Positions 6,263-23,690 of a DNA stretch of 64,000 nt are shown in pieces; positions within the stretch are counted from its first letter, which is position 1; the number at the start of each line of letters is the position of its first letter. The notes beneath the pieces are model-generated. The model worked only from the letters and a program-made list of their open reading frames with translations, was not told where the DNA came from and ran no database searches. Where the stretch lies: assembly GCA_045546695.1 (NCBI GenBank), contig JAZQDE010000049.1, forward strand, positions 7,288 through 71,287, written 5' to 3'. Made by a program: the position numbers and the translations under genes. This DNA is from Clostridia bacterium (GTDB taxonomy: Bacteria > Bacillota > Clostridia > UBA1212 > UBA1255).

Positions 6263-6275
6263 TTCTAACCCTTTT

Positions 6276-7823
6276 TTATCCTGCAATATCAACCGAATCG
6301 ATGCCTGTGTACTTACCGATTGCCTTACTTTCTCCATTATGCCATACGTAAACAGTATTATTTGATGAATATATAATGTGCTCTATATTTGAATCAAAAA
6401 AGACTTCATTTGCTATATTCTGGCAGATTCTTGTAGTTCTGTTTTCAATTACAAGGTCTAAAGAAAGCTTGTTTTCTGCGTATTTGCGGCAAAGCAGATA
6501 TTCATCATCTGCAAGGCCATAGAGCCTTATTTCGTTTGACATATCAATTTTTTCTATATCACCTTTTTTAAACAATATATAGGCATCCTGTGAGCCATCG
6601 TTTTTCTGGTATCCCATAATCTTTTTATTGTAATAACTGTATAAAAATCCCGTATTATCGGATATCTTTGATATTTTCAGGGATACGTCAAGAACTTTGT
6701 ATCTGTTCAGCGTTGCATCTTCGTTGCGGAAATACAAAAGACCTAATGACTCCTGGTATAAAAACGTTGCGTTTTTATCACACGTTATTTGCTTTTGCGG
6801 CTTATTTCCACCGGCAGACATATAAATTGTGGAAGAATATTCTGACTTGACCGTGTACAGTATCATGTCATCATTCTGCGAGTAATATATAACGTTTGAA
6901 ATTTCCTGCGCAACCTGTTTTATTTTACCATCTTTAAAATACATTAACGATGCGGTTGTTCCTTGTTCATTTGTAACAATATCTGTCAGTAAATACTTGA
7001 ATGGAACAGATTGGTTACATGGTATCTTCTCCGCTATTGGTTCGGTAATATATGACGCTGATGAATTCTTTACGAGCTGAGCACCTTGTTTTTTTGTAAC
7101 TATTTTTCCTTTTATATTTGCAAATACAAGTTCGCCATCTTTTTTATAACAGATATACTCCCCGTCTGAGTCAATATAAAACGATTTACCCGGATCTATA
7201 TTTTCAGCAACTTTTGTAACTTTAGCGTTTTTATCAGCATAAAGAAGGTCCATCTTACCTGTATCTTCCTTTGAATTATCTGCAAAAAGAACTCCATTTT
7301 CACCGATGCAATACAGGTTGTCTATCAATATGTTAGATACAGTATTTTCACTTATTTTGATATATTTATTGCCCTTATATAAGTAAAGATATGCGTCGTT
7401 ATTCAGATCCACTGTGAAAATAACTGATTTGTCTTCAAACAGGTTGAAAAATGCACAGTTGTCTACAAGCATTCTTCTGCTGTTTGTTGTAATATCGTAT
7501 TCAAAGAGTTGGCTTTCTCTGAGGTAGTATACGAGTGCGTTTGACGTATCGTGTACAGCCTGACCTACTGAGTCATCGACCGGTGTAACTTCATATTCTT
7601 CGTTAATAATATACAAATCAGAATTGCTGTCTGTGAAAATAAACGGAAACATCTGTACCCGGCTGACGCCCATATCGTCGTCCTGAGTCATATCCGTTAC
7701 ATTGCCCGGCATTAGTTCGAGTAGCGATATAACAACAAATACAACAAATACAACACAGAATGCAATTATTGCATTGCGTTTTTTATCTCGTGTTATATAC
7801 GTTTTGATTTTTTTCTCAGCCAT
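6276..7823 (-). CDS. hypothetical membrane-anchored (type II) extracytoplasmic protein
   Basis: 515 aa. An N-terminal basic stretch is followed by one TM helix ([18 protein letters not shown]). The rest is Y/N/D-rich beta-type repeats. I recognise no family. It overlaps the metA stop by 8 nt. Confidence 0.65.
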
Positions 7824-8775
7824 TTGTTATCATACCCTTCTGAACAGGAGCAAATTTATCATCAATATCTGATAAATCATAAGGTGTAGCCTGATATACG
7901 TAGTAATTGAGCCAGTTGGCATATAATAGATACGCGTGGCTCTTCCACTGAAATGTCGGAATGTTTTCCGGATTATCTTCAGGGAAATAATTCTGCGGAA
8001 TCGCTGTATCAAGACCTCTTTCGTGGTCGCGGAAGTATTCATTTTTCAAGGTATCTCTGTCATACTCCAGATGTCCGGTCATAAATATCTGTCTTCTGTC
8101 ATGCGATGCACAAATACAAAGACCGGCTTCTTCTGACGTTGCCAATATATCCAACTGCGGAATTTTCTTTACTTCTTCTGTTGATGTTGTTGTATATCTT
8201 GAATGTGGCACGTAGAAGCAATCATCAAAGCCTCTTAAAAGTCTCACAAATTCATTTTCAGATTTATGTTCAAAAATACCAAACATCTTTTGAGGCAGCG
8301 GATGTTTTTGAACACCATAATGATAATACATACCTGCCTGCGCGCCCCAGCAAAGGTGAAGTGTTGTTGTAACGTTAGTCTTTGACCATTCCATTACGTC
8401 GCATAATTCTGACCAATATTCAACTTTTTCAAATTCAAGAAGCTCTACAGGTGCCCCGGTTATTATCAGACCATCGTATTTCATGTTTTTAATATCATTA
8501 AAATTAACATAAAATGTATTAAGATGACTTGCCGACGTGTTTTTAGACACGTGCGTTTTTGGATGAATCAAGGTAACTTCTACCTGTAGTGGTGAATTAC
8601 TAAGAAGCCTCAGAAGCTGAGTCTCTGTCTCAATCTTTTTAGGCATAAGGTTCATAATCGCTATTTTGAGCGGTCTGATATCCTGATGATATGCCATATT
8701 CTCATCCATCGTAAAAACATGCTCTTGTAAAAGCGTTTCTTTTGCAGGTAAATCATTTGGAATTTTAATTGGCAT
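7816..8775 (-). CDS. metA: homoserine O-acyltransferase (MetA family)
   Basis: The MetA N-terminus is [21 protein letters not shown]...[19 protein letters not shown]. The ATG at 8775 is preferred because AAAGGA sits 9 nt upstream. The longer ORF start at 8784 abuts that RBS. Confidence 0.85.
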
Positions 8776-8866
8776 ATGCACCATCCTTTCAAATAGTATT
8801 ATCTTTTTATTTTACTATAGAAAAGGCAAAAAGTCTATTCTTTATTAAATAAAAATGAATGAAAAA

Positions 8867-8893
8867 AAGCTCTGCCTATGGCAGAGCTTTTAA
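8867..8893 (-). terminator. rho-independent terminator ending the ABC operon (bidirectional-capable)
   Basis: AAAAAAAGCTCTGCC-TAT-GGCAGAGCTTTT forms a 10-bp GC-containing stem. An A-run flanks one side and a T-run the other. It lies 22 nt past the stop of the 8915-10261 gene. Confidence 0.65.
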
Positions 8894-8914: not shown

Positions 8915-10261
8915 TCAATAATCAACCAATGTAGACCAGAGGTCATTACATGTTGTCTGGAGTTCTGTAAAGGCATTTTCAAGTGATACACTACCTGCCA
9001 TTACTTTTGGAATAATCTTAGCCATTTCTGTGTTGATCTTAGTAGCGATTTCGTAAGGCATACGACATACTACCTGACCTACGATACTTGCTGTCTGTGC
9101 TTCAAATACGAAAGCATCCCAGTTCTTATTTACCCAGTCTGCTTCGTCAGGATATCTCCAAGAAGAGTCTTCTTTGAGGCTACCTACTACAGGAACTGAT
9201 GCACCGGGCTGTCCGTTATAAGCTCTCTGACCTTCCTCTGTGTAGAAGAAAAGTGCGAAAGCAGCTGCTGTATCCTGATTTCTTGTTCTGTTATAAACGC
9301 CGAAACCTGAAGAACCGCAACCAAATCCTCTGTTCTGACCATTTTCACCAAAGCCGGGGAATGCAACGATATCCCAGTCAACGCCTGCAGCGTCATAGTC
9401 TTTACCAGCGCTGAGAACCTGAGGATGTACGCAATACTTGAATACAGGAGTACCTTGAGTCTTGGTGCTCGTACCTGGATTGATGTAACCTGCTAAAGCA
9501 GCATCAATACATTCCTGCATAGCCTGGAGTGTACGACCATCTTCATCAATAAATGTAATCTTCTTCTCTTCTGTGTCGCACCATGTGCCACCAACAGCTG
9601 ATTCAAAGAATGTTACATATACAGGTGAATATGTAAGGTCAATGTTTGCACCATAGAATTTCTCGTTTGTCTCTGATGTAGCTTCTGTAACAGTCTTGGA
9701 AATCTCAAGAAGGTCACTCCAAGCCCAGTCATTCTTAACCATTGTAGCAAGGTTGTACTCTTTCAATTTGTCTACGTTGTATGTAAAGCAAATTGCGTTG
9801 TAGTCTCTTGATACATAGTACAGACGACCATCAATCTTACCTAACTCATAAATACCCATGTAAACGTCTGACAAGTCAAGGTCAAGAGCTGCAACATAGC
9901 CCTCAAGTGGCATGAGACCATTACATGTAACAGCATACTCGTAAATCTGTGTCTCAGCGAAGTAGAAAACGTCACCGATTGTACCACCGTTTACACGTGT
10001 AGCTGATGAGTCAGATGAATCGAGCTTAACAGATGCATTTGGATATGCACTCTCAAATGCTTTGATAAAAGAAGTAGCTGCTCTCTTAGCAAAAGCATTT
10101 GACACATTGAATGTCCAAGTGATCTCACCGGATACGTTTACATCGTAATCAGCGTTAACGTTAGTAACGTTTACGATAGGTGCCTGATTACATGCAACCA
10201 TTCCGAATAAAGTGAGAGTTACAATGAACAAGACAATTGCTCTTTTTACAATCTTTTTCAT
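8915..10261 (-). CDS. ABC transporter substrate-binding lipoprotein (extracellular solute-binding family 1, CUT1 type)
   Basis: 448 aa. Signal peptide plus lipobox LFGMVAC. GTIGDVFYF and the overall pattern match sugar binding proteins. It is a paralog of the next gene. Confidence 0.85.
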   Translation of the reverse strand: MKKIVKRAIVLFIVTLTLFGMVACNQAPIVNVTNVNADYDVNVSGEITWTFNVSNAFAKRAATSFIKAFESAYPNASVKLDSSDSSATRVNGGTIGDVFYFAETQIYEYAVTCNGLMPLEGYVAALDLDLSDVYMGIYELGKIDGRLYYVSRDYNAICFTYNVDKLKEYNLATMVKNDWAWSDLLEISKTVTEATSETNEKFYGANIDLTYSPVYVTFFESAVGGTWCDTEEKKITFIDEDGRTLQAMQECIDAALAGYINPGTSTKTQGTPVFKYCVHPQVLSAGKDYDAAGVDWDIVAFPGFGENGQNRGFGCGSSGFGVYNRTRNQDTAAAFALFFYTEEGQRAYNGQPGASVPVVGSLKEDSSWRYPDEADWVNKNWDAFVFEAQTASIVGQVVCRMPYEIATKINTEMAKIIPKVMAGSVSLENAFTELQTTCNDLWSTLVDY

Positions 10262-10363: not shown

Positions 10364-11842
10364 TTAATGTGTGTTTACAGCATCCTGTATCTCCTGCATG
10401 TAAATATCAAATGAAATATCATCTGATTCTGCATAAAGACGGATTGCCTCGCCTATTGCATCGTTAATCTCTGCAGATGGAGCAAGTGGCAGGAATGAAG
10501 TGATTTCTGCCGGATAATCAAATGCACTATACAGTGAAAATACAGATGTGTTTTTACCATCTACAGGGAAATTTCTCCAATATTTCTTTGCGTTTGCTGT
10601 GATAAGAGCAGGAACACGATATCCATCCTCGCCTGTTATGGCAACAGCGGCTTCTTCAACCATCGCATAAAGAGCGAATGTGATTGAATTCTTGATTGTG
10701 TTTTCAACGTTCTCTTTTTCTTCTGCCAAAAGAACCTCATCAGTTATTGCATCGTATACGCCATTAACAACGTTGTAGTGTTCACGGTTAAATGCGGCTA
10801 AACCAATTGTCTGAACACCGATTGTAGCAACACTCGTTTCAGTCTTTTCATCATAGAATCTCGGGAAATGAGCAAGCTCCCAGTCAAAACCGTCTGAATT
10901 GCTTCCGGCAAGACCATTTGCCCATCTTACGATATCTGAGTGATTACAGATAACCATAGCATAATTTGCAAGATCTGCTGCAGAAAGTTCTGCAGGTGTT
11001 TTATCCGCAACAAAACCTGTTTTAATGAAGTTATTTGCAAGATATTCAATACCGCTCAGAACAGCAGGATTTGTAAGTTTTAATGCAATATCATTTTCAG
11101 CAAAATCTACCTCATTGTAAAGCGCTGCACTCTTGCTTCTTGCAAATGCACCCCATACTGAATAATCAGCATAATCCATAACGATAGGAGACTTGTGACC
11201 TGCTTCTACCAGAGCTTTTGCAATCTCTTCTACCTCTTGCCATGTCCAGTCATCTTTTGGTACGACAGGGTTGATTCCGATTTCATTCAACAAATCGATA
11301 TTAAGAAGCATTACGGTGTTGTTGTATTCAACAGGACACATAAACAGTCTTCCGTCATACATTGAATTTGCAAGAGCAGCCGGATAGAAAAGCTTTGAAG
11401 GATAAAGCTTTGTATACTCATCACTTGTATAGTCGATAACGCCTTCACTGTGTTCGCTGAGGTCAATTATATAATCTTTTTCTGCATACTTTGCAAGCAT
11501 AGCTGAATCAATGGTGAAAACGTCACCAATTGTTCCGTTTTCGATTCTTTCTTCTAATGTTGAAAAATATTCTTCAGCGCTGTCTGCAAGATCAAGCTCT
11601 ATGTCTACGCTCGGGTACTGCATTACAAAAGATTGCATATAGTTGAAGCTTGCAATCTCACCGTCATCACAACGATACGAAGAGAATACAACAGAGCCGA
11701 TAAGTTCTTCAGGAATCGGTACAGGAGTTGATAAGCCGATGAATTCGTCCTCATCATCATCTTTTCCCGAACATGAGATGAGTGACAATACCATAATTGC
11801 GGCTAACAACATTGTAAGGATTTTAATTATATTTTTATTCAT
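10364..11842 (-). CDS. ABC transporter substrate-binding lipoprotein (family 1)
   Basis: 492 aa. Lipobox LSLISCSG. GTIGDVFTI is shared with its neighbour. Binding-protein fold pattern. Confidence 0.85.
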   Translation of the reverse strand: MNKNIIKILTMLLAAIMVLSLISCSGKDDDEDEFIGLSTPVPIPEELIGSVVFSSYRCDDGEIASFNYMQSFVMQYPSVDIELDLADSAEEYFSTLEERIENGTIGDVFTIDSAMLAKYAEKDYIIDLSEHSEGVIDYTSDEYTKLYPSKLFYPAALANSMYDGRLFMCPVEYNNTVMLLNIDLLNEIGINPVVPKDDWTWQEVEEIAKALVEAGHKSPIVMDYADYSVWGAFARSKSAALYNEVDFAENDIALKLTNPAVLSGIEYLANNFIKTGFVADKTPAELSAADLANYAMVICNHSDIVRWANGLAGSNSDGFDWELAHFPRFYDEKTETSVATIGVQTIGLAAFNREHYNVVNGVYDAITDEVLLAEEKENVENTIKNSITFALYAMVEEAAVAITGEDGYRVPALITANAKKYWRNFPVDGKNTSVFSLYSAFDYPAEITSFLPLAPSAEINDAIGEAIRLYAESDDISFDIYMQEIQDAVNTH

Positions 11843-11863: not shown

Positions 11864-12901
11864 TTACTCAATGACACCAATTCGTTCGATACCGGCAACA
11901 AGTCTCTTCTGACCAAGAATATATACTATTAATACAGGTAACATTACCATAAGACATCCTGCGAAAAGAACCGGTTCTGAAGAAGCTCTCAGAGTTTCAC
12001 TGATAGCACCGCCATCATAACCTAACTCCTCAAGATAATTCTGCTGAATCTTACTGAGGGATTCCTGGAATGTATTATGTTGTGGCAAGTAAGTATATGT
12101 CAATGTCTCCTGGTTATCATTCCAATGCCATACAAACGAGAATATAAATACGATTGTGAGCGCTGATTTAACAAGCGGGAACATAATCTGACCAAATACT
12201 CTGATTGGACCGGCGCCGTCGATTCTCGCTGCATCGTCCATAACGTCCGGAATTCTCTGGAAGAAGTACATATAAATCAAGATGAACAACGCGCCTCTCA
12301 GACCATGTCCGAAAAGTGACGGAATCAATATAGCGTAGAAACCTTCTGCCATTCCCATCTGTGACCACATGAAGAATGATGCTGTGATCATTGTTTGCGG
12401 CGGGATTAAGAGAATAATGATAACAAATAACATTATAAACAATCTGCCTCTGAACTTAAATCTACCTAATGAATATCCTACAAGAGCACATGAAACGGAC
12501 TGAAGAATCGCACTGCCAAGTGAAAGAATGATGGTATTCAGAAGAGTTGAGTAATAATCACCTATTCCGGGATCAACCAAATCAAGATCCAGTGACGGAT
12601 CTACTGAAAAGACATCCAGACCCATCCATGCTTTCTGGAAGTTTTCCCAGTTAATATGTGTAGGTATGTACTGTACAGTAGGATCCATGTAATCCTGAGC
12701 TGACATCATCGACGTCGTAAAGATGTAGATAAATGGTAACAGGAAAAGATAAGCAAGCTCTATGAGCACATAGTATAAGAAAACTCTTCCGATTACAAAC
12801 TTAATCTTTTTCTTTACTTTATAGCCAAGATTTTCGTATTTAGTGTAAAGGCCAAGGAAAAACTCCTTGATTCTATTTATCAATCGCTTCATCTCAGCCA
12901 C
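11864..12901 (-). CDS. carbohydrate ABC transporter permease (MalG-like)
   Basis: 345 aa with about six TM segments. The EAA-like loop is DAARIDGAGPIRVFGQIMFPL. It has an enlarged extracytoplasmic loop. Confidence 0.85.
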   Translation of the reverse strand: MAEMKRLINRIKEFFLGLYTKYENLGYKVKKKIKFVIGRVFLYYVLIELAYLFLLPFIYIFTTSMMSAQDYMDPTVQYIPTHINWENFQKAWMGLDVFSVDPSLDLDLVDPGIGDYYSTLLNTIILSLGSAILQSVSCALVGYSLGRFKFRGRLFIMLFVIIILLIPPQTMITASFFMWSQMGMAEGFYAILIPSLFGHGLRGALFILIYMYFFQRIPDVMDDAARIDGAGPIRVFGQIMFPLVKSALTIVFIFSFVWHWNDNQETLTYTYLPQHNTFQESLSKIQQNYLEELGYDGGAISETLRASSEPVLFAGCLMVMLPVLIVYILGQKRLVAGIERIGVIE

Positions 12902-13770
12902 CTCCTTGTGAAGAGAATGAATATGAGAATAACAATTAATGTCATCAACATGTAAAGCCAGCTAAGAGCAGCTCTCTCTCCGTATTTATCCATATTGTTG
13001 AGAAGTCCCATTACCGGGTTAGATGAATCAACGAATGAGTCAACAAGCGCGTAAATACAGTTCAGGATAACGAACGGAGATACGTATGGTAATGTGATAT
13101 GCCAGAATGATTCCCATGCAGACGCACCGTCCAGGTCAACAACTTCATAAAGGATATCCGGAACACTCTGAAGAGCAGCAAGGAAGATAAGAATCTCTAC
13201 ACTACTTCTCCACATTATGTGACCAATTTCTGAGGCAATTCCTCCGAATCCTCTCAGGAACTGATTGTTTGCAACAATCTGACCGAAGATACTAATATTA
13301 CCAACGTCATCACTGAAAAGATATGACATGATAACACCGGAAAGGATAACCGGGATAAAGAATATAACTCTGAAGTAAACTCTTCCGGGGAATTTCTGCT
13401 TTAACAGTACTGCAACAAACAATGCAAATGCAACGATTACAGGTACCTGATAAAGAGCATTCAAAAATGAATTTAACACAACCTGACCCGATTCAGGATC
13501 CTGAATAACCTCAATATAGTTATCAATACCTACCCATGTACTAAGGCCTGTATTACACCACAAGTCCTGTCCGTTAACGTTGTAAAAACTCATTTTTACA
13601 GACATGAAGAGTGGAATAAACAAGAACCAAACGAGGCCTATTAACCATGGAATTGAGAAAACCAAGCCTTCAAGATTACGTCTTCTTTCGAAAGATAAAA
13701 ACGTAGTCTTAACTCTTCTATGAGCCAGCTGTTTCTTTGTTAAAACTTTTGTTTTTTTATTATCTGCCAT
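12889..13770 (-). CDS. carbohydrate ABC transporter permease (MalF-like)
   Basis: 293 aa. Polytopic, with the EAA motif region LDGASAWESFWHITLPY. Confidence 0.85.
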   Translation of the reverse strand: MADNKKTKVLTKKQLAHRRVKTTFLSFERRRNLEGLVFSIPWLIGLVWFLFIPLFMSVKMSFYNVNGQDLWCNTGLSTWVGIDNYIEVIQDPESGQVVLNSFLNALYQVPVIVAFALFVAVLLKQKFPGRVYFRVIFFIPVILSGVIMSYLFSDDVGNISIFGQIVANNQFLRGFGGIASEIGHIMWRSSVEILIFLAALQSVPDILYEVVDLDGASAWESFWHITLPYVSPFVILNCIYALVDSFVDSSNPVMGLLNNMDKYGERAALSWLYMLMTLIVILIFILFTRRWLR

Positions 13771-13773
13771 AGA

Positions 13774-16332
13774 TTACTCCCCCTTAGCGCTTATTACGCT
13801 ATATCCTTGACCATCAAATGATAATACGTCATTTGTGTAAGGATCCGTTATCTCAATTGCTTCTTTTTCGTAGCAAACGTATACTCTTGCTCCGCCTGAA
13901 TATTCGGTGCAGTATACTTCAGCATCAGCTGAAAGCTTGTAATGGTTTACAATCTCTTCGTTAACGAAAGGAGCAACAGCTTCTTCAATTGCTTTATAAA
14001 CCATTTCAATTGTACCAAGCTGATCAAGCAGTTCATACTCTGATTTATATAATGTATTGTAATATGTCCACTTAAGCAACGCAGATTCTTCTTTTGTTAC
14101 TTCAATTGAACCTAATGCACCATATTCAATGGATCTGAGCAATGCATCATATTCTACGTCACAGTTATTAATTGGCATTGAATAGTAAGGTACTATGCCA
14201 TGGTAAATCATCTGTACAAACGGAATCTCCTCATCAAGTACAACGTGTGAAGACTTTGTCATAGACATATCGTAAATTGATGATACGAAAGGAACAACAT
14301 ATGAATTACCATTGTATACTGATACAGTATCAAATTTTTCATTGTATTTGATAAGCCAGTCAACATATTTATTGATTAACTGAATTCTGAATAATGCATT
14401 GAACTGGTTATAGTCTGAATAAAGCTGATCACCAATCTGCTGAAGAGTAACGCCTGATACATCATAGTCGCGGAGTCTACCGATATTCTTTGAAAGAATC
14501 TTACTCTCAAAGTATAAAGGACTGAGAATATATCCGTTTCCACCTCTATAATAAGCACCGGAAACTGTCTTGAGCTTATAGTTCAGATAGAACGTACTTG
14601 GAATCTTCACGACAGAATTTCTGAGTGTAGCACTGCCTGACGGTGAACCATACAGGTACAATAAGTTGTTATCATAGTTGACTGTTATACCATTCTCCTC
14701 TGCCCATGCGTTGAATTCTTCCATGTCAAGGCCATCATCATAGCTGCTGTCGGGCTTAAGTTTAGATGTGGAATTCCAGAAATAACCATTATTCATCCAA
14801 CCAACCATTGTCATGGTAATATCTGACATTCCCTTGTTCTTGAGATCATTATAAATATTCTGAGCATCCTTGAATGTTGTCATTACCTTAAGCTGGTTTG
14901 TTACGCCACCTACAGCATTTTCTGCACCCATGAATGTTCTGAGATTCAGAATATCAGCATCAGAAATGTTTCCGATTGTAACGTCAACTCCGTATCTTTC
15001 TTTCCACTGAGCAATCATTTTTGTCTGAACAGTCTTTGCAAGGTCGTTGTAACTATATTCTTTTTCTTCAGATAAATCAAATCTGATACGCTGCTCTACG
15101 TCACCGAGCTGCATAGTTCTTGTAATATCTGAATATGAAGAACCTGACTTTGAAACCTGTCTGTTGAAATACTCTCTATATGTGTACTGAACGTATATCG
15201 CATAGAACGGAACGTTTCTTACACCCGGATTTGATACTCTCAGGTATGCATTTGCTTCACCCTGTTCAATAAATCCGGTAATCATTGAGTTTGCATATTT
15301 ATTAACGTCTTTTGCATCCTCACTCAGATTTTCAATAATACCATATGCCCCAAGAAGGATTGTATGGTTGTTATATCTTGGCTGAGATTCAGCATCCGTT
15401 ACAGAGTCAATTGTATAATCCCAACCGTAAATTCTTTTTGCGTATTCACTTGAGTTACTTACTCTTGATACTGAGAAGTCAGTAACTGCACCTGAACCAT
15501 CCGGAACAACAAAGTAACCGGATTCACCGCTACGATGAGCAAAAAGATATGGAAGAACAGCAAGAGATGAAAGAAGTGGTCTTTCTTCTGCTGTCTGATC
15601 TTCAATATCATCGCTCAGATATGGGCGCTCGATGATACCATTTTTAGGAATGAAATATACAACTTCATTACCATCAAGTGTAATTTCCACAGAAAACTCG
15701 AGTTCGAGGTCTACCATTTCATAAGTCAACCTGATACCATTTTCGATATAGTATACATTTTTAACATGTTCCTGAGTATTTACACCGACAAACAGACCAC
15801 TGTCTCGGCCGGACATCTTTGTGTATCCAATGAATACAGGTGAAGTAATAATATTACCGGTAGAAGTACCCTTCTTGAAAATATCTATATCACCCGGATC
15901 ATCTTCTGTCGCCTGAATCGGCTCAGGATAACTTCTGAAGATCTCACCTGTTGCATTATCCTTGAAAATAAACAAGTCATTCTTTGGGGAATAGCTCATT
16001 GTGAGATATTCATTCTGTGCAATAACTGTCATTCCCTCGTCTCCGAGCATCTGACCGTTAATGCCTTTATCTTTCAGTGGTGCTGATACCTGTACGTCGC
16101 TCTTTATACCTTCGTCGCTGAATGAGATTAAAGATGATTCAGCAAAACCCACCTTGATAATAAGGAAGCCGAGTAAAAATACTGTAACAAGAGCTACAAC
16201 AATCTTAACAATTCTGAGGTAGAATTTCTTTTTTGCCATCTTGGCAGCATATGCTGCAGCTTCTGCCTCATCAATATATAAAGAAGTTTTTTTGGTTTCA
16301 ACATCAATATCTTTTTTCTTTTTCTTAAACAA
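13774..16332 (-). CDS. large N-terminally membrane-anchored extracytoplasmic protein of unknown function. It may be a TIM-barrel glycosidase-like family of the DUF5696 type.
   Basis: 852 aa. A Lys-rich N-terminus (MFKKKKKDIDVETKK) is followed by a single TM (IVKIVVALVTVFLLGFLIIKV). The extracellular body has motifs VPDGSGAV, MTMVGWMNNGYFWN and PFVQMIYHGIVPY. It is translationally coupled to the genes on both sides. Confidence 0.7.
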   Translation of the reverse strand: MFKKKKKDIDVETKKTSLYIDEAEAAAYAAKMAKKKFYLRIVKIVVALVTVFLLGFLIIKVGFAESSLISFSDEGIKSDVQVSAPLKDKGINGQMLGDEGMTVIAQNEYLTMSYSPKNDLFIFKDNATGEIFRSYPEPIQATEDDPGDIDIFKKGTSTGNIITSPVFIGYTKMSGRDSGLFVGVNTQEHVKNVYYIENGIRLTYEMVDLELEFSVEITLDGNEVVYFIPKNGIIERPYLSDDIEDQTAEERPLLSSLAVLPYLFAHRSGESGYFVVPDGSGAVTDFSVSRVSNSSEYAKRIYGWDYTIDSVTDAESQPRYNNHTILLGAYGIIENLSEDAKDVNKYANSMITGFIEQGEANAYLRVSNPGVRNVPFYAIYVQYTYREYFNRQVSKSGSSYSDITRTMQLGDVEQRIRFDLSEEKEYSYNDLAKTVQTKMIAQWKERYGVDVTIGNISDADILNLRTFMGAENAVGGVTNQLKVMTTFKDAQNIYNDLKNKGMSDITMTMVGWMNNGYFWNSTSKLKPDSSYDDGLDMEEFNAWAEENGITVNYDNNLLYLYGSPSGSATLRNSVVKIPSTFYLNYKLKTVSGAYYRGGNGYILSPLYFESKILSKNIGRLRDYDVSGVTLQQIGDQLYSDYNQFNALFRIQLINKYVDWLIKYNEKFDTVSVYNGNSYVVPFVSSIYDMSMTKSSHVVLDEEIPFVQMIYHGIVPYYSMPINNCDVEYDALLRSIEYGALGSIEVTKEESALLKWTYYNTLYKSEYELLDQLGTIEMVYKAIEEAVAPFVNEEIVNHYKLSADAEVYCTEYSGGARVYVCYEKEAIEITDPYTNDVLSFDGQGYSVISAKGE

Positions 16333-18436
16333 GATAACTCAACTCCTTTACCAATTGTGCGATAAATGTGAACAGCTGACTTGTCAATGCATATACGAGA
16401 ATGAATAACATTGCAACTGCTGAAACACCGACAACTGTTATGAAAAATACAACAAATGCTTTAACCGGGTGGAAGCCGTGTATACCCTTGATGGCAAAGT
16501 ATACAAGGAACACTACCAATATCATAAGGATTGTATTCGCAAGATTCCACAGACTTTGTTCATTAAGAGTAAGAACATGTGTCAAAGCATGAAGTGGAAG
16601 TAATGCTATCATCCACGGAACGTGACAATATGCACCTGCGATAAATACGTCTCTGAGACGACCTTCACCATACATGATTGTTGTAACGCCGTAGTTAACA
16701 ACACACATAACAAGCCATGGAATCAATGAGAACAATATTGTCTCAAATGGATTAATCAGGTCGAGAGAAGAGCCTCCTCTGAATATAAAGCTTGTAGCAT
16801 ATTCAGAAGCAACTGAAACGGCAGTGTAAAGTAACATTACAAGCACCATATCTGTATAAGAACCCTGGTTCTCATATCTGATACCTTCAAATCCATCAAC
16901 AGGATGACGTACCACGCCATAGCTTCTGCTGAAGAACTTCTTGACCTTAGTAAACGCATTGTTTTTCTCCGGAGGAACACCATACTTACGTTTTCTGTAA
17001 CGTTTGAATGTCTTCCACGCAATAGCAAGTAACAACAATGCGATGATTGAGATAACAATAACAGTAAAGTAATCTCTTATAAAATATGTTCTGATCTCGT
17101 CAAACGCATCAGAAGCATTTGTGGCATCTTCTGCATCTACAAAATAATCGTATGCTATCTTGTAGTTCTCTTCCTGCATCTTACGCATTTCTATTTTACC
17201 CATGTTAAGAAGAGCAAGTGTATAGAAGCTGTCTTTTTCAAGAATTTCTTTCCAGATCGGAAGAGATTCATCATATTTACCATCAATAAAGAGATTGTTG
17301 GCTTCATGAACCGTCTTGATAAAATCTGTCGGCTCGTAAACTGTAATTGTTGAAGTTGCGTTATCAAGAACGTATACCCTACCTCTGCTGTCAACTTCTA
17401 TACTGATTGGAACTCTGATCTGACCGTATCCAAGACCATCACTGCCGAATACACAAAGGTTGTTGCCCCATTCGTCATATGAATAAATACGGCAATATCT
17501 CTGATCGAGAATGAACATGTTACCATTGCTGTCAACTGTTACATCGATAAATGTCTGGTTAACATCTGAATAGTTGTTTGACAAGCTCGTATCACTGAAG
17601 TTGAATGATCCGTACAATACGTCAGAACCTGCAATGTTAATCTTTCTTACCTGAGGTGGTGTATCTGTTGTTGTAGTCGCATACATATAACCATCGTCAG
17701 ATGCGTAAATGTTTGTGAAAGTATACGGGAGCGTAACGATAGAACCTTTTCTGTCCTCTCTGTCCCAGAGTACTTTTGCAATTGATTCCCAGAAGGAAAG
17801 GTTTACTTTGTTTGTGCCATAGTAACTTCTGAATTCACCATCTGCACTAAGCTGCATGATACCGTTATAGTCACCTGTGTTACATACGTAAATATAACCT
17901 CTGGTATCCTTTGTAACTTTTAAGGGCTGATAGTTAAAATCAACTGATAAAAGTTCACTTTGCGGCATTTCATATGAATATCTCAAGTTACCATATTTTG
18001 TATATTCAACAAGTCTTGAATTACCTGAGTCTGCTACAAGGATTGTACCTGAACCTGAATCAACGTAAACACACATAGGATTCTTGAGTGCTGACTGATC
18101 TTCAGGATATGTACCCTTACCTGATACTTCCAATACAAAATTATAATCAGAATCGTATTTTACTATTCTGTTGTTACCGGTATCTACAACATAAATATTA
18201 TCATCATCATCAATGAAAATATCTTCCGGTTTGCTGAGTTTACCCTCTTCTTTAGTAGGTTTATCAATAACTGTGCAAACTTCGTATGCTGCCGGAATCG
18301 GATAAGGCTTATCCAGAGCACCGTTGTACATATTCAGATAATAGTTCGGATATGGAGTATCGGCACTTACAGTAAACGTACATGTGAATACGAGAGCAAA
18401 TAACAGGAGTAAACAAACATATTTTTTCATTTTCAT
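16325..18436 (-). CDS. secreted NHL-repeat beta-propeller fused to a C-terminal Yip1-like multi-pass membrane domain
   Basis: 703 aa. Signal peptide MKMKKYVCLLLLFALVFTCTFTVSA. There are five or six NHL blades (YVVDTGNNRIVKYD, ILVADSGNSRLVEY, IYVCNTGDYNGIMQL, MFILDQRYCRIYSYD, VYVLDNATSTITVYE). After a TM helix and a basic cytoplasmic linker come about five further TM helices resembling Yip1-domain proteins. Confidence 0.8.
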   Translation of the reverse strand: MKMKKYVCLLLLFALVFTCTFTVSADTPYPNYYLNMYNGALDKPYPIPAAYEVCTVIDKPTKEEGKLSKPEDIFIDDDDNIYVVDTGNNRIVKYDSDYNFVLEVSGKGTYPEDQSALKNPMCVYVDSGSGTILVADSGNSRLVEYTKYGNLRYSYEMPQSELLSVDFNYQPLKVTKDTRGYIYVCNTGDYNGIMQLSADGEFRSYYGTNKVNLSFWESIAKVLWDREDRKGSIVTLPYTFTNIYASDDGYMYATTTTDTPPQVRKINIAGSDVLYGSFNFSDTSLSNNYSDVNQTFIDVTVDSNGNMFILDQRYCRIYSYDEWGNNLCVFGSDGLGYGQIRVPISIEVDSRGRVYVLDNATSTITVYEPTDFIKTVHEANNLFIDGKYDESLPIWKEILEKDSFYTLALLNMGKIEMRKMQEENYKIAYDYFVDAEDATNASDAFDEIRTYFIRDYFTVIVISIIALLLLAIAWKTFKRYRKRKYGVPPEKNNAFTKVKKFFSRSYGVVRHPVDGFEGIRYENQGSYTDMVLVMLLYTAVSVASEYATSFIFRGGSSLDLINPFETILFSLIPWLVMCVVNYGVTTIMYGEGRLRDVFIAGAYCHVPWMIALLPLHALTHVLTLNEQSLWNLANTILMILVVFLVYFAIKGIHGFHPVKAFVVFFITVVGVSAVAMLFILVYALTSQLFTFIAQLVKELSYLV

Positions 18437-18450
18437 AATCTGTAACCTCC

Positions 18451-19329
18451 TTATTTAATACCTGAATGTGCCATTGTATCCATAACACGGCTTTGCTGAA
18501 TTATGAATATTATGATACTTGGCAACGTCATAATTAACGATGAAACTGCTGTCGCACCTGTTCTTGCAACGTTACCGCCAATTGTTGACATAAAGAACGC
18601 AAGTGTTCTTAAGTTCTCTTCATAAATGTATGTGTTTGATGTACCTGCATCGCCCCAGATACCACCGAATGAAAGGATGATAGCTGTTGCCTGAGCATTC
18701 TTCAGAAGCGGCAATGCAATCTTTGTATACAGCTTCCATTCACTTGCACCGTCAATCTTACCAGCCTCAAAAATCGAATCAGGAACCTGATCCAGGAACT
18801 GTTTCATAAGGAAGAGGATTGTCGTTGAAGCCAGACCCGGGATAATATAAACAAAATATGTATTATCAATACCGAGCTTTGTAATAATCAGGTATGAAGG
18901 AATACCTGCAGCTGCTGTTACGAACATCAGGGCTGTTGTAATGAGCTTGAACAAAGCTTTATGTCCTGGGAACTTATGCTTTGAAAGCGGATAACAAGCC
19001 ATTGTGTCTACCATAATCAATGCAAACAAGTAACAGATAGTTACAAATATTGTATTGAAAAGATATCTTGAAAATGGTACCAAGCTGTTTGATGTTACTG
19101 TACTGAGGTCAGAGAAGTTCTGTAGCGTCGGATTCTTAACGAAGAACGTCGGCGGATACAGGAACAATTCCTCCGGTGGCTTGAAGGCCGTGCTTACGAG
19201 GTAAATCAAAGGAAGGAATGATAGGATACCTGCCAGGGACAGGAATATAACAATTATCTTACCAGAGTAATCTCTATGTTTTCTCGCTTTTTTTAAATAA
19301 TCAACGTCAACTTGTAACATATGCATCAC
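18451..19329 (-). CDS. carbohydrate ABC transporter permease (MalG-like)
   Basis: 292 aa, polytopic. EAA loop EAGKIDGASEWKLYTKIALPLL. Confidence 0.85.
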   Translation of the reverse strand: MMHMLQVDVDYLKKARKHRDYSGKIIVIFLSLAGILSFLPLIYLVSTAFKPPEELFLYPPTFFVKNPTLQNFSDLSTVTSNSLVPFSRYLFNTIFVTICYLFALIMVDTMACYPLSKHKFPGHKALFKLITTALMFVTAAAGIPSYLIITKLGIDNTYFVYIIPGLASTTILFLMKQFLDQVPDSIFEAGKIDGASEWKLYTKIALPLLKNAQATAIILSFGGIWGDAGTSNTYIYEENLRTLAFFMSTIGGNVARTGATAVSSLIMTLPSIIIFIIQQSRVMDTMAHSGIK

Positions 19330-20312
19330 TCCTTATCTTGTAAGAGTTTGAACGCAATACGTCCAAGACCCAATATTAATATTGACAACACAACGGCTAT
19401 CGCCGACGCGTAACCAACCTCAAATCGTGTACCGGAGTAGTCTCCTAAGTGCAACATAATCGTAAGACCTGCATCCTCCGGAGACGGGTGACCTGCCATC
19501 GTAGAACCTACAGTAAACGCACCTGTAATCTGTAATACGGCTGCGAAGAGCAACTGTGGCATTGTCTGCGGAATATCAACATACAGAAGTCTCTGGAATC
19601 TTGATGTAACACCGTCAACGGCAGCTGCGTCATATAGCTCGCGGTCAACGCCTCTGAAACCGGCAACAAATGACAAGAATCCTGTACCAAGTGATGACCA
19701 CAAAGCAACTACGATTGTAACCGGCATGATAAGGTTAACGTCCTGAGTCCACATGATAGGCTCATTTATGAAGCCCATCTTCAAGAGTAACGCATTCAGG
19801 TAACCTGTACTATCGTTAGAGAAGAGTACTCCCCATACAACCGTCATCGCTACAGCACTTGTAAGTGACGGAGCATAGAATGCCAGAACGTAGACTGCTC
19901 TGATTTTGTCAGGAACCTGGTTGATAAGCCATGCAAAGAAATATGATGCAACATATCCACAAGGACCAACAATAACAGCATAATAGAGAGTGTTACTGAA
20001 AGCCTTTAAGAAGAGCGGGTCATCAACGAAAAGGTACTGATAGTTTGTAAGACCATTGAATACCGGATCTTCAAGAATACTCCAATAAGTAAAGCTCAAT
20101 GCTGTTGATGCAATCAACGGAAGCAGTGAAAAAATTATAAATACTATAAAGAATGGTGCGATGAGACCATATGACATTTTATAACGCCACATCTCATGCA
20201 GTGTGTAGCCAAAACGTTTCTCAACGTTGAAGAAACGTTTTTTAGGCTTTTGAACTGCAGGCACAGCCGATTCTTTTTTGTTTGAATCTTTATTTTTTGA
20301 CACTCTACTCAC
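19326..20312 (-). CDS. carbohydrate ABC transporter permease (MalF-like) with basic N-terminal extension
   Basis: 328 aa. A Lys-rich cytoplasmic N-terminus is followed by six TM segments. EAA loop DAAAVDGVTSRFQRLLYVDIP. Confidence 0.85.
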   Translation of the reverse strand: MSRVSKNKDSNKKESAVPAVQKPKKRFFNVEKRFGYTLHEMWRYKMSYGLIAPFFIVFIIFSLLPLIASTALSFTYWSILEDPVFNGLTNYQYLFVDDPLFLKAFSNTLYYAVIVGPCGYVASYFFAWLINQVPDKIRAVYVLAFYAPSLTSAVAMTVVWGVLFSNDSTGYLNALLLKMGFINEPIMWTQDVNLIMPVTIVVALWSSLGTGFLSFVAGFRGVDRELYDAAAVDGVTSRFQRLLYVDIPQTMPQLLFAAVLQITGAFTVGSTMAGHPSPEDAGLTIMLHLGDYSGTRFEVGYASAIAVVLSILILGLGRIAFKLLQDKE

Positions 20313-20315
20313 CTC

Positions 20316-23300
20316 TTAATCTTCCTTAAGACTATGGAGACATGAACCAATACTCGGATCAGGACCATCGGCCAGGATATCCCAATATTGTTCTTGTTTA
20401 CGTCTCATCTCTTTATCTATCTCACGGATAGCATCTTCGAGAGCAACTCTTGCACTCTGTCCCTGCAATACTGTCTGGTTAAGAGCTGTAAGCAAGTACC
20501 TTGATGTGTAGTAGTCACCAAGAGTCTGAGGAGTCTCTTTGATCCAATCCCACTGAGCATTGATAACTTCGAGTTCTTCTGCTGTATAAGGTAATTCCTG
20601 TACAGCATTCTTGTTCGCAGAATTCCATCTGCCGGCAACACCGAATGTAGCTTCGATTTCTCTGCCATATTCTGCCTGGACGTCGTCAGAAGCCCACCAC
20701 TGCATGAATACCCATGAAGCTTCTTTTGTCTTTTCAAAATCAGGTCTTTCGTGATTGTTGATCATAATCGAACATGTAGCAACAGCGTTCATTGATCTGT
20801 CAATTACTACCTCACCTGCTTCGTTGAGTTTAGCCTGTCCGGGAACCGGCTTCATAGCCCATTTACCTTCAAGCTCAGGAGCTGCGTAATTGAGCTGACA
20901 ATAGAAGCCCATATCACCGATACCAATCGGCATCTCACCTGATTTAAATCTCATATAGAAGTTTGCAGCGTAAACGAAATTGTACTGTAAATAGAGGTTA
21001 CAATATTCAATAAATCCATCATAAGCTGCCTGCGTACCAAGAGCAGATGTCATACCATGTTCATCATAGAATGTACCACCGTGCTGGTAGAGGAATGGTG
21101 TGTAGCCACCTACACCATAGTTATAACAGAAATCGTAACCTGAGTTTGTAAGAATCGGAATAATATCATATACGTCTTCCCATGTATCAGGAGCAACGAT
21201 TCCTAATTCTTCAAATATATCAGTTCTGTAGAAAAGTGCTGACCAACCCTGTGTCTCCGGGAAACCATAACAGTGATCCTTGAAGTTGATAGGTTTGAAT
21301 ACTTCTTCATAATATGAAGATGCCTTAAGGTCATCAAATCCGAGGTATGCCTCGCCGTTGAACTCGCCTGATTCAAATGTATCAAGCGGAACAAGCGCAT
21401 CTCTTACAGCGTATTCAAACGGAGTACCTACACCGATTGATATAGCAACATCAGGAGCAGTACCTGCAACATAACGTGGCATGATAAGACCTTCAGAAGC
21501 ACCTGCAACCATGTTGAGGTTTACCTTGATACCATATCTTGAAGTAAAGTCTTCACCAATCATGTTCTCGAGAATTGTAACATACTCTCTGGCACGTGAT
21601 ACATATACGGTAATCTCTGTGTCAGCATCTGATGCGCCTTCTCTCAGACCATAGTTAGAATATTTTTCTGTATCGAATGAATCAAAGAATCTTACAACAC
21701 CAACTTTAAGATTCTGCCAACCTGAGCTGACTGTACCCGGATAATCATATCCATCTGTACAAAGAACCATGTAGTCAGCAGTCATAGGCTGATCTTTGAT
21801 TGATGAAAGTGTCGTACTGAGACCTGAAAGAGCATTGTTGATATCGTTAAGAGATGTAGGAATCTTTTCCAGATCTTCTTCGAACTTTTCAAAGAGCTCC
21901 TCTGCAACCTGAATTGCTGATGCGTAAGACGGTACCTTATTACCATTCAGAGCAAGAATCTCTTTATATGTCTCAGCAAAAAGCTCCTTGTATGTAACAA
22001 CGTCATCCTGGATAGAAGGAATGTACTTCTGCAAATCCCAGTCACGGTTTGCATCAACAATATAGCCACCCGAGCTTGAACGTGTAGAAGCAGTAATCTT
22101 TACGATCTTGTTGATAAGAGTTGAAATTGAATCCATTGACTCTTCAAGTGCTACAAGAGCATGTCTGAGTGGACCAACCTTATTTGTAATAGTAATCGTA
22201 TGTGTGCCTGCTTCAAGATAGAACATGTAAGGATTCTGGTTTGCATCACAAAGAGAAGTAGCAATCCAGCCATCTGAGTATGGGAAGCAATATTCCTTCA
22301 TCTCTTCAAAAGGAATCTCGCCGTCAATCTTAATTTCTCTGTAGCATGCAACATATGTGAGTTGTGACTTGTATCTGAAACCGATCTCGTACCAGCCTGT
22401 CTCAGGAACCTCAAATGACCATTGAGCCATGTCGCCACCTGTATTCCAGTTGTCACCGCCGAAGATATTGTAAAGTGTCACTTTATAAGGAGATGCATTA
22501 ACGTCAGAAGATGTGCAATAGTTGCCATCTGTTTCCATACGTGTACTGATACTTGTGACAAAGTCAGCAACCTCAAGTTCAGTCTTGATGATGCCACCCT
22601 TATAGATAGCGCCTTCGCTGAAGCCGTTTGCTGTCTTGTAATCTTCGTATGAACCAATAACAGGAGGTGCTACAAAGCTGATACCATTGATAACACCGGG
22701 TTCTCTGTCAAATGTCATGGTGACAATATGTGTACCCTCTGTCATATAGAATCTGTAAGGATCCTTATAAAGGCCATCAGGGTTTGTCATAATCTGACTG
22801 TTCTGCTTATAAAGAATCATTGTCTTACCACGGATCTGGTTGCCTACGATATCTTTGTTGTTAGCGTAGTCAGTATCATAGAATGTATATGTACGCTTGA
22901 GTGACAGGTTACTTGCTTCAGCAAAAGGATATTTCTCATCAATTGTCAATGAAACAAGCATGTCAGCATACTTTCCACTCAAAAGATAATAATCGAGGTT
23001 CAATGAATACAATGCCGATTCAGGAATTGTAACCTCGAATGTAATAGTAGTCTTGCCTGTAGAAGCGTACAAGCCATCTTCGATGTCCGTAACGGTAACT
23101 TCTTCGTCCTTGGATGGATCTGTATATTTAAAGCCATCTTTGAACTTATCTACTTGTGAAAACAGCTTTAATGCTTCGGACGCATCATCACCCTCGACAA
23201 CAACAGCGCTGTCGGGATTGCCTGTCTCATAAATAGTAAGATTACCATTAGCGTCAGTTGAGAAATCAAGACTGATATCCTCACCTTCGTAATACTTGTA

Positions 23301-23534
23301 ACCCTTCGTTGCATATTTGCTGAGTACCTTACCGTACTCCAGCAAACTGTTATCAAGTCTGTCTTCGTTAGTTATAAACGGATTGAAATCCATCTCATCA
23401 TAATTCTCATAAGCAAATTGCTGCGCACCGGGTTCTTTGGTGAGAGAATTTACTACGAGGACTGCGATGAGAATAACAAGAAGACCGGCTACGACCGATA
23501 ACTGAATAATTCTCTTCTTCTTCTTTTTATTCAT
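20316..23534 (-). CDS. giant membrane-anchored solute-binding protein: an N-terminal TM anchor, a ~550-aa extension of unknown function and a C-terminal family-1 binding-protein domain
   Basis: The preferred start is MNKKKKKRIIQLSVVAGLLVILIAVLVVNSL at 23534, with GGAAGG 9 nt upstream. The 23591 start adds 19 implausible residues. The C-terminal ~480 aa have the binding-protein pattern (periplasmic-binding fold type II sugar binding proteins). It is the first gene of the operon. Confidence 0.75.
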   Translation of the reverse strand: MNKKKKKRIIQLSVVAGLLVILIAVLVVNSLTKEPGAQQFAYENYDEMDFNPFITNEDRLDNSLLEYGKVLSKYATKGYKYYEGEDISLDFSTDANGNLTIYETGNPDSAVVVEGDDASEALKLFSQVDKFKDGFKYTDPSKDEEVTVTDIEDGLYASTGKTTITFEVTIPESALYSLNLDYYLLSGKYADMLVSLTIDEKYPFAEASNLSLKRTYTFYDTDYANNKDIVGNQIRGKTMILYKQNSQIMTNPDGLYKDPYRFYMTEGTHIVTMTFDREPGVINGISFVAPPVIGSYEDYKTANGFSEGAIYKGGIIKTELEVADFVTSISTRMETDGNYCTSSDVNASPYKVTLYNIFGGDNWNTGGDMAQWSFEVPETGWYEIGFRYKSQLTYVACYREIKIDGEIPFEEMKEYCFPYSDGWIATSLCDANQNPYMFYLEAGTHTITITNKVGPLRHALVALEESMDSISTLINKIVKITASTRSSSGGYIVDANRDWDLQKYIPSIQDDVVTYKELFAETYKEILALNGNKVPSYASAIQVAEELFEKFEEDLEKIPTSLNDINNALSGLSTTLSSIKDQPMTADYMVLCTDGYDYPGTVSSGWQNLKVGVVRFFDSFDTEKYSNYGLREGASDADTEITVYVSRAREYVTILENMIGEDFTSRYGIKVNLNMVAGASEGLIMPRYVAGTAPDVAISIGVGTPFEYAVRDALVPLDTFESGEFNGEAYLGFDDLKASSYYEEVFKPINFKDHCYGFPETQGWSALFYRTDIFEELGIVAPDTWEDVYDIIPILTNSGYDFCYNYGVGGYTPFLYQHGGTFYDEHGMTSALGTQAAYDGFIEYCNLYLQYNFVYAANFYMRFKSGEMPIGIGDMGFYCQLNYAAPELEGKWAMKPVPGQAKLNEAGEVVIDRSMNAVATCSIMINNHERPDFEKTKEASWVFMQWWASDDVQAEYGREIEATFGVAGRWNSANKNAVQELPYTAEELEVINAQWDWIKETPQTLGDYYTSRYLLTALNQTVLQGQSARVALEDAIREIDKEMRRKQEQYWDILADGPDPSIGSCLHSLKED

Positions 23535-23690
23535 ACGCTCAACCTTCCATATTGTAGATTGTGAAACGATTATTAACTCAAAACATAACACAAAATACGC
23601 CCAAGTCAGATTTGGGCAAACTTAACAAAATGATTATATAGATTTTATGCAACAGTGTCAACTGTAACCTTTTTATTTTTTAAGATATTT

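Follow-up and report, generated by a model that had tools for sequence, protein, structure and literature searches.

What is a six-bladed NHL propeller doing in one protein with a Yip1 membrane domain, and why is the gene for such a protein placed in the middle of an operon for sugar import? The question is raised by a stretch of 64,000 nucleotides (here called the window) from a Clostridia bacterium (GenBank assembly GCA_045546695.1, contig JAZQDE010000049.1, positions 7,288 to 71,287), in which nine genes, all read from the minus strand, encode in this order a big solute-binding protein, permeases A1 and A2, the NHL-Yip1 protein, a DUF5696 protein, permeases B1 and B2 and two lipoprotein binding proteins. 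The architecture and the fixed gene cassette around it are widespread in Bacillota and not peculiar to the window. The gene context, together with the way in which the NHL and Yip1 parts are fused in some genomes and split in others, on balance favours the reading that NHL-Yip1 is a dedicated, non-transporting membrane adaptor or scaffold subunit of a conserved Bacillota glycan-uptake machine.

Both halves of the protein are recognised by their families. The NHL profile of Pfam (PF01436) matches at E=1.7e-15 (56.6 bits, cut-off 20) and the Yip1 profile (PF04893) matches residues 507-676 at E=9.7e-10 (39 bits, cut-off 28.6), covering profile positions 2-170 of 173; searched alone, the Yip1 part reaches 45.8 bits. 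In NCBIfam the NHL-type similarity is to ScyF and ScyE, below threshold in both cases. An AlphaFold2 model built from 68 homologues (mean predicted local distance difference test score 85.6) forms the propeller from six blades of four strands each, with a helical insertion at residues 215-232. Comparison of this predicted fold with the PDB by Foldseek gave the six-bladed NHL fold, with TRIM71, Thin and Pizza/PknD-type structures at target-normalised TM-scores of 0.8-0.84 and Brat also among the matches, and a PDB search by sequence returned the same families (Pizza/PknD, TRIM71 and Thin). A profile search of the PDB with the Yip1 domain yielded nothing meaningful (best E=1.4).

The propeller is followed in the model by helices at residues 371-384, 388-401, 406-418, 422-434 and 438-485, a region for which homologues give TPR matches in Pfam and in which W395 and R449 are invariant and S442 is nearly so (at least 90%). 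The long last helix includes a transmembrane (TM) segment, TM0, beyond which the cytoplasmic linker carries the motif HPxDGF (H511, P512, G515), conserved across 158 Yip1 domains. Within the Yip1 bundle N581, G590-E591-G592, Y603, P607, E626, H653 and E698 are near-invariant. Most of the near-invariant residues of the Yip1 part are predicted to be cytoplasmic (H511, P512, G515, G590, G592, H653) or intrahelical (N581, Y603, P607), E626 and E698 being predicted outside. Hydropathy and the positive-inside rule agree with the AlphaFold2 model on the predicted topology, which leaves propeller and stalk outside and the linker and the G590-E591-G592 loop inside, and all three predict the cytoplasmic N-terminal segment and five TM helices expected of a Yip1 domain. 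At the other end of the protein the hydropathy peak of the signal region covers residues 7-25, and the model has a helix at residues 2-20 and then a low-confidence hinge. A lipoprotein anchor was considered and rejected, there being no lipobox before the cysteines; readings of the gene as part of a defence system or a mobile element were also rejected, as the context holds no such hint.

A preliminary description of this DNA, made from the letters and their reading frames, had proposed a signal peptide, five or six NHL blades, one TM helix, a basic linker and about five further TM helices. Pfam, AlphaFold2 and hydropathy bear out this layout; the blade count becomes six in both the model and the Foldseek comparison, and the minus strand and the TPR-like stalk are added to the picture. 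The possibility raised there, that the C-terminal TM region belongs to an unrelated family, did not materialise, for the protein and all 20 of the stand-alone relatives searched match Yip1. The remark that no characterised bacterial protein has this architecture is consistent with the literature searches, in which no paper on DUF5696, on the NHL-Yip1 architecture or on this uptake system was found.

How widely is such a protein distributed, and in what company? At E<=1e-3 it has 337 homologues, nearly all with both NHL and Yip1 and listed in databases as 'YIP1 family protein' or 'hypothetical'; one database protein is 100% identical, and a genome scan seeded from a 7-sequence alignment confirmed relatives in at least 493 species-representative genomes. 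The reading frame is thus not a chance one. The neighbourhood was studied in 85 genome loci of Bacilli and Clostridia, whose six-frame open reading frames (ORFs) were searched with the proteins of the window. The seven-gene order big binding protein, A1, A2, NHL-Yip1, DUF5696, B1, B2 is present in 68 of them, and a contig edge cuts off most of the remaining 17. Wherever the contig permits judging, the gene adjoins DUF5696 and/or CUT1-type permeases (85 of 85 loci). In loci that extend far enough, the Yip1 gene is without exception followed by DUF5696, and DUF5696 by permease pair B. Carriers include Paenibacillus, Cohnella, Bacillus, Lederbergia, Alkalibacterium, Ruminiclostridium hungatei, Ruminococcus flavefaciens, Lachnospiraceae and Oscillospiraceae, and the cassette proteins are down to 25-30% identical to those of the window. 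The reverse test, seeded by a DUF5696 motif, gave 80 metagenome loci, of which 7 start at a contig end; the other 73 have sequence ahead of DUF5696, and in every one of them the gene directly before it is a Yip1 gene. Even three distant DUF5696 members, 20-27% identical, all sit within the same cassette. The tightest partner of NHL-Yip1 by linkage is DUF5696 and not the permeases.

The invariant core, NHL-Yip1, DUF5696, B1 and B2, keeps its order across two Bacillota classes, and the remainder of the cassette varies around it. Half-cassettes without pair A are found in L011, where GH106-like, GH42 and GH2 genes precede (GH, glycoside hydrolase), and in about 12 metagenome loci; in L064 the big binding protein is present and pair A absent, a configuration found in one R. 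flavefaciens locus. In L074 pair B is shifted to the front, and the variants, which also include metagenome loci L113, L136 and L137, comprise some with the circularly permuted order NHL-Yip1, DUF5696, B1, B2, big binding protein, A1. Individual components may also be unusual in size: some B2 permeases are enlarged to 442-479 aa by an insertion between their halves (L059:13767-15095, L066:15832-17157, L041:16177-17613), and a 585-aa ORF occupies the A2 position in L078 (125-1879), its N-terminal 300 residues being unexplained. A 902-aa NHL-Yip1 variant showed in Pfam no additional annotated domain that would hint at a substrate.

These loci also bear on what had been said of the gene's surroundings. 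The expected neighbours are in place, a MalG-like permease upstream and the 852-aa membrane protein, now assigned to DUF5696, downstream, followed by a second permease pair. Translational coupling had been proposed for both sides. Downstream, the gene ends in TAA within an 8-nt overlap with DUF5696, whose TTG start has AAGGAG 10 nt ahead of it, inside the last codons of the NHL-Yip1 gene; on the upstream side A2 is separated from the gene by a 14-nt gap with a ribosome-binding site and no overlap (the ATG start has GGAGG 9 nt upstream). Linkage to ABC transporter genes in other genomes, on the absence of which the idea of a transporter role would have foundered, was found in every locus that could be judged. 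The co-occurrence of Yip1, DUF5696 and CUT1 genes in other Firmicutes, which the preliminary description had mentioned, is verified in genome loci and metagenomes by the 68 full orders and the unbroken reverse test. The proposed role itself, a dedicated accessory of the transporter, we still infer, with support from gene context and from fusion and fission.

The second line of evidence concerns the joint between the two parts. Among 82 loci that were scored, 45 have the NHL and Yip1 parts fused and 37 have them in two adjacent genes, cut exactly in the cytoplasmic linker. The first of the split genes encodes a protein of about 500 aa with signal peptide, propeller, TPR module, one TM helix and a basic tail, and the second a stand-alone Yip1 protein of 205-230 aa, whose start codon in most split loci overlaps or abuts the stop of the first gene; the split of L038 resembles a frameshift more. 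The stand-alone genes of the cassette are genuine family members, with a best Pfam Yip1 match of E=6.8e-21. A search of 1.84 billion representatives with only the Yip1 part returned 527 clusters at E<=1e-10; of the best 150, most are as long as the fused protein and a sizeable minority are short, in part perhaps as fragments. In the split form the propeller protein has a membrane anchor of its own, a TM helix, and yet Yip1 is always retained; this arrangement argues that the Yip1 part would do something beyond anchoring.

The model of the DUF5696 partner (predicted template-modelling score 0.82) places, behind a TM helix, a TIM barrel between two beta-sandwiches, and its sequence profile independently matches DagB (1.8e-8) and NagBb (2.8e-4), so that a GH129/DagB-like fold and a detectable sequence relationship were both found. 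It may be regarded as a membrane-anchored protein of predicted GH129/DagB-like glycosidase fold and the family as a candidate glycosidase family. The catalytic candidates of DagB include an Asp of the N-terminal domain and the barrel Asp486, to which the catalytic Asp435 of NagBb is equivalent (PMC5698469). Among 151 DUF5696 members D305 is conserved in 97%, D640 in 93%, E736 in 89% and D278 in 88%, and the set D305, D640, R649, N722 and E736 in 89-99%; D640 falls roughly at the position expected for DagB Asp486, as interpolated between aligned segments. Some DUF5696 proteins reach 1100-1725 aa with large extra regions (L035:12149-17323, L039:12114-15899, L045:3400-7029, and others); in Pfam searches of such long variants (up to 1725 aa) the extra regions matched no family and gave no substrate hint. 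The eukaryotic 4F2hc/rBAT proteins might be considered as a loose parallel for a glycosidase-like ectodomain beside a transporter, with the difference that theirs is GH13-like and catalytically dead and their partners have the LeuT fold, whereas DUF5696 is GH129/DagB-like with conserved carboxylates.

Which substrate passes through the system? The big binding protein has, ahead of its SBP_bac_1 domain, an N-terminal extension of 450 residues consisting of two CBM6/CBM35-like carbohydrate-binding modules (CBMs) and a coiled-coil-like helical region. The profile of the extension matches the CBM35 of CITase (5x7g, E=4.4e-10), Pfam finds CBM_35, GH115_C and CBM_6 in homologues, and for the SBP domain the closest match, a weak one, is Lin1841 (5ysb), which binds sophoro-oligosaccharides. 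The first ~650 residues of the big binding protein are conserved in nearly all related loci and have no Pfam family of their own. A MalK-type ATPase gene stands directly upstream of the cassette in ~15 related loci, and the flanks of related loci hold extra binding proteins (27 loci), CBM65 proteins (10), GH26 with CBM35 (9), LacI regulators (8) and GH130 (7); single loci have a GH2 beta-mannosidase, or a GH94 SOGP with a glycoamylase-like gene, and two-component regulators or LacI are present in many. In Paenibacillus lactis the cassette adjoins GH26 and GH2 beta-mannosidase genes, and in Lederbergia citrea it is accompanied by GH94 SOGP and glycoamylase-like genes. The cassette is a carbohydrate import system, often tied to beta-mannan in a variable context: the flanking enzymes of related loci mostly suggest beta-mannan, with beta-1,2-glucan suggested in one case.

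In its logic the cassette resembles the Sus-like polysaccharide utilisation loci (PULs) of Bacteroidota and the Gram-positive CUT1 PULs, such as that for beta-mannan in Roseburia, which unite surface capture, a surface glycosidase and import in one regulon. Like the Gram-positive mannan PULs, related loci are flanked by GH26, GH130 and GH2 enzymes, and CUT1 permeases with SBP_bac_1 proteins are standard. What sets the cassette apart is that its permease pair is doubled, that its binding protein is TM-anchored and bears CBM modules, and that it has the NHL-Yip1/DUF5696 pair. No Yip1, NHL or DUF5696 component is mentioned in the accessible papers on mannan loci of Gram-positive bacteria, nor does a 2026 paper on how Bacillota use beta-mannan refer to any Yip, NHL or DUF component. 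The component families are known; their combination and the fixed cassette are uncharacterised.

How would an adaptor of this kind work? Within the membrane the Yip1 bundle would pack against the permeases, against the single TM helices that anchor DUF5696 and the big binding protein, or against both, presenting its conserved cytoplasmic face (HPxDGF, GEG, H653) to the inside. Outside, the propeller on its TPR-like stalk would hold the glycosidase-like ectodomain and/or the binding proteins, or the glycan itself, above the transporter; the CBM modules would capture the polymer, trimming would occur at the surface, and the products would be handed directly to the two importers, powered by ATP hydrolysis in a MalK/MsmX-type ATPase encoded elsewhere in the genome. 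The conserved residues of the TPR/stalk region are of the sort typical of protein-protein modules, and the partners are surface glycan proteins (DUF5696 with its GH129/DagB-like fold and the binding protein with CBM35). The conserved Yip1 and stalk positions fit protein-protein contacts, as judged from the alignments, which is compatibility and not proof.

A precedent is offered, by analogy, by YknW of Bacillus subtilis, the only studied bacterial one that was found. It is a Yip1-family protein reported to modulate the assembly of the ABC exporter YknXYZ (PMC4887032, PMC4338810), and it shares with the NHL-Yip1 protein that it is polytopic, encoded in an ABC transporter operon and not itself a transporter. 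The likeness is one of family and operon setting. YknW is small, has no extracellular domain and serves a MacB-type exporter with a membrane-fusion protein in toxin efflux, whereas NHL-Yip1 has an ectodomain of propeller and TPR module, and its partners are type I CUT1 importer permeases (BPD_transp_1) and SBP_bac_1 proteins. Because the transporter class is different, NHL-Yip1 at most 'works like' YknW and is not a member of that system. The eukaryotic Yip1/YIPF proteins belong to the same Pfam family above threshold and likewise have a five-TM bundle after a cytoplasmic segment; they reside in the Golgi and the ER and have been linked to Rab GTPases and vesicle traffic (PMC6682643). Since bacteria have neither Rab GTPases nor vesicle traffic, the shared fold is uninformative on mechanism here.

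Several observations weigh against the adaptor. A conserved operon shows shared function, not contact, and the YknW precedent concerns an exporter of another class. The conserved residues of the propeller are mostly the generic NHL repeat motif, and because of this no binding site or partner interface can be assigned on it. The window offers neither glycoside hydrolases next to the operon nor a MalK-type ATPase. Finally, the half-cassettes without pair A (L011, L064 and the metagenome examples) exist, and therefore a role in bridging two transporters cannot be universal. An extended form of the proposal may be put forward only tentatively: the whole cassette could build a single supercomplex at the cell surface, the Gram-positive equivalent of what is called the 'utilisome' in Bacteroidota. 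In it a Yip1 hub with its NHL/TPR platform would join two ABC importer cores to the tethered GH129-like glycosidase and the CBM-bearing binding protein, with capture, cleavage and import of a polymer physically channelled.

The propeller might instead be an enzyme (a lyase, lactonase or esterase) or a lectin acting on the glycan at the cell surface, the Yip1 part only positioning it near the transporter; the substrate-capture option of the preliminary description is a reading of this sort. NHL and SGL propellers include enzymes, the domain is predicted to be extracellular beside CBM- and GH-like proteins, and there is a weak Pfam SGL match (E=9.8e-4) besides the ScyF similarity of 72.7 bits. 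Both scores, however, stay below threshold (19.2 against 26.3 bits for SGL / SMP-30, PF08450; 72.7 against 350 for ScyF), the relatives of closest known structure are propellers that bind or sense (PknD-derived Pizza, TRIM-NHL), and in the conservation analysis the pattern follows the structural NHL repeat, with no family-specific catalytic constellation seen. An enzymatic propeller would, moreover, leave unexplained the constant separate Yip1 gene where the propeller protein has a TM anchor of its own, and this explanation is considered unlikely.

Could the propeller be a sensor? It would then detect an extracellular polymer and signal through TM0 and Yip1 to regulate the permeases or the ATPase, instead of building a complex. 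Its sequence is most similar to the sensor domains of PknD type, and the comparison extends to topology: the Mycobacterium kinase PknD and the TRIM-NHL proteins, the best PDB matches by sequence and fold, share the six-bladed propeller, and in PknD it is also extracellular and attached through one TM helix. Within Yip1, the residues of highest conservation (HPxDGF, GEG, H653) lie together on the side predicted to be cytoplasmic, and YknW is reported to 'modify' rather than constitute its transporter (PMC4338810). The outputs differ, however. In PknD it is a cytoplasmic kinase domain, and TRIM-NHL proteins bind RNA inside eukaryotic cells, whereas here the propeller leads to a Yip1 bundle in a transporter operon, with no recognisable output domain in a cytoplasmic portion of ~50 residues and short loops. 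The LacI or two-component regulators of many loci already cover transcriptional sensing, and the strictest linkage is to DUF5696, which is extracellular and not an ATPase; a sensor or gate is accordingly held to be distinctly improbable. Least probable of all, and hardly to be expected, is that NHL-Yip1 together with DUF5696 makes up a surface machine of its own, one that might for instance remodel or recycle the wall or exopolysaccharide of the cell itself (Yip1 perhaps conducting a small molecule), and shares the operon with the importers only for co-regulation. The two are an invariant pair, whereas pair A and the binding proteins are not always present or in the same place, and the operon of the window lies among housekeeping genes. 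Against this, pair B follows DUF5696 wherever sequence is available, the flanks in other genomes hold plant-glycan catabolic enzymes and LacI repressors, and no Yip1 protein is known to transport anything.

In the window itself (Table 1) the operon is bounded by one promoter-like and one terminator-like element, which, like its tight gene junctions, speaks in favour of the adaptor reading. The true start of the big binding protein is probably the ATG at 23534, and a terminator-like hairpin with a T-rich tail (23598-23618, minus strand) lies in the leader between the promoter and this start; it could be an attenuator or a chance match. The three SBP_bac_1 binding proteins and the two pairs of MalF-like and MalG-like permeases are those of CUT1 importers, and no MalK/MsmX-type ATPase is encoded anywhere in the 64 kb. 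Shared MsmX-type ATPases encoded elsewhere are usual in Bacillota. The flanks consist of housekeeping genes, amino-acid biosynthesis (thr, met, his) and a murD-like gene, and give no clue to the substrate. The only glycosidase-like gene near the cassette is of GH78 alpha-L-rhamnosidase type (Bac_rhamnosid6H, 29327-31486, minus strand); it is four genes (~5.7 kb) upstream, with the thr operon and the murD-like gene in between.

Table 1. Features of the NHL-Yip1 gene and its operon (positions in the window)
Feature	Coordinates	Strand	Basis
NHL-TPR-TM-Yip1 protein, 703 aa (gene)	16325..18436 (16325 end includes the stop codon)	minus	single ORF, Pfam, AlphaFold2 model
Signal peptide, residues 1-25	18362..18436	minus	MKMKK, hydrophobic core, cleavage-type site between VSA and DT
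Six-bladed NHL beta-propeller, ~residues 30-369, predicted extracellular	17330..18349	minus	Pfam, PDB sequence matches, Foldseek, DSSP strands
TPR-like four-helix module and stalk helix, residues 371-454, predicted extracellular	17075..17326	minus	AlphaFold2 helices, Pfam of homologues, conservation
TM0, residues 455-474, chain back to cytoplasm	17015..17074	minus	hydropathy maximum 2.66 at 456-474; part of helix 438-485
Basic cytoplasmic linker, residues 475-526, KR-rich	16859..17014	minus	sequence, hydropathy/positive-inside
Yip1 five-TM bundle, residues 527-703	16328..16858	minus	Pfam, AlphaFold2 helices (527-702), conservation
Candidate operon promoter, TTGACA-17-TATAAT, 12/12 consensus	23633..23661	minus	consensus match only
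Big solute-binding protein, 1091 aa, N-terminal TM anchor, first cassette gene	20316..23591	minus	Pfam SBP_bac_1, residues 674-973
Permease A1, MalF/UgpA-like	19326..20312	minus	Pfam BPD_transp_1; NCBIfam UgpA and GlcT similarity
Permease A2, MalG/UgpE-like, directly upstream of the NHL-Yip1 gene	18451..19329	minus	Pfam, NCBIfam
DUF5696 protein, 852 aa, N-terminal TM anchor	13774..16332	minus	Pfam E=2.5e-116
Permease B1, MalF/UgpA-like	12889..13770	minus	Pfam, NCBIfam
Permease B2, MalG/UgpE-like	11864..12901	minus	Pfam, NCBIfam
Lipoprotein solute-binding protein, 492 aa, lipobox LISC	10364..11842	minus	Pfam SBP_bac_1, sequence
Lipoprotein solute-binding protein, 448 aa, lipobox MVAC, last operon gene	8915..10261	minus	Pfam SBP_bac_1, sequence
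Candidate operon terminator, 12-bp stem then T run, 24 nt past the last binding-protein gene	8865..8891	minus	sequence

Some further genes of the window may be recorded. An ORF of 378 aa (35134-36270, plus strand), directly after the S-adenosylmethionine synthetase gene, combines a LuxS domain (residues 6-148) with a PNP_UDP_1 domain, Pfs/MTA-SAH nucleosidase-like (166-356), and thus two consecutive steps from S-adenosylhomocysteine to homocysteine appear to be fused in it. A 999-aa ORF (37841-40840, minus strand) has no Pfam match at E<=0.001. Beyond the end of the operon a 515-aa ORF (6276-7823, minus strand), with an N-terminal hydrophobic helix and no match in Pfam or NCBIfam, overlaps with its start the end of a metA-like gene (7816-8784) by 8 nt and is followed by a leucine-rich-repeat protein (5162-6337).

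Glycan uptake in Gram-positive bacteria of gut, rumen and soil is usually drawn as a binding protein, two permeases and a shared ATPase. To this picture the cassette adds a further pair of permeases and three conserved surface proteins that are tethered to the membrane, and it is present in at least several hundred species, often beside mannan-degrading enzymes. Even on a cautious view, DUF5696 becomes a GH129/DagB-like candidate glycosidase family, and the seven genes provide a portable marker for an unstudied uptake system. One may ask what would follow if NHL-Yip1 were indeed an assembly hub. Larger surface machines could then incorporate ABC importers, a function would be at hand both for DUF5696 and for the bacterial Yip1 family, and a clear genetic and structural target would be available in culturable hosts; were the supercomplex to prove true as well, it would be the first mechanistic role of a prokaryotic Yip1 domain in an importer.

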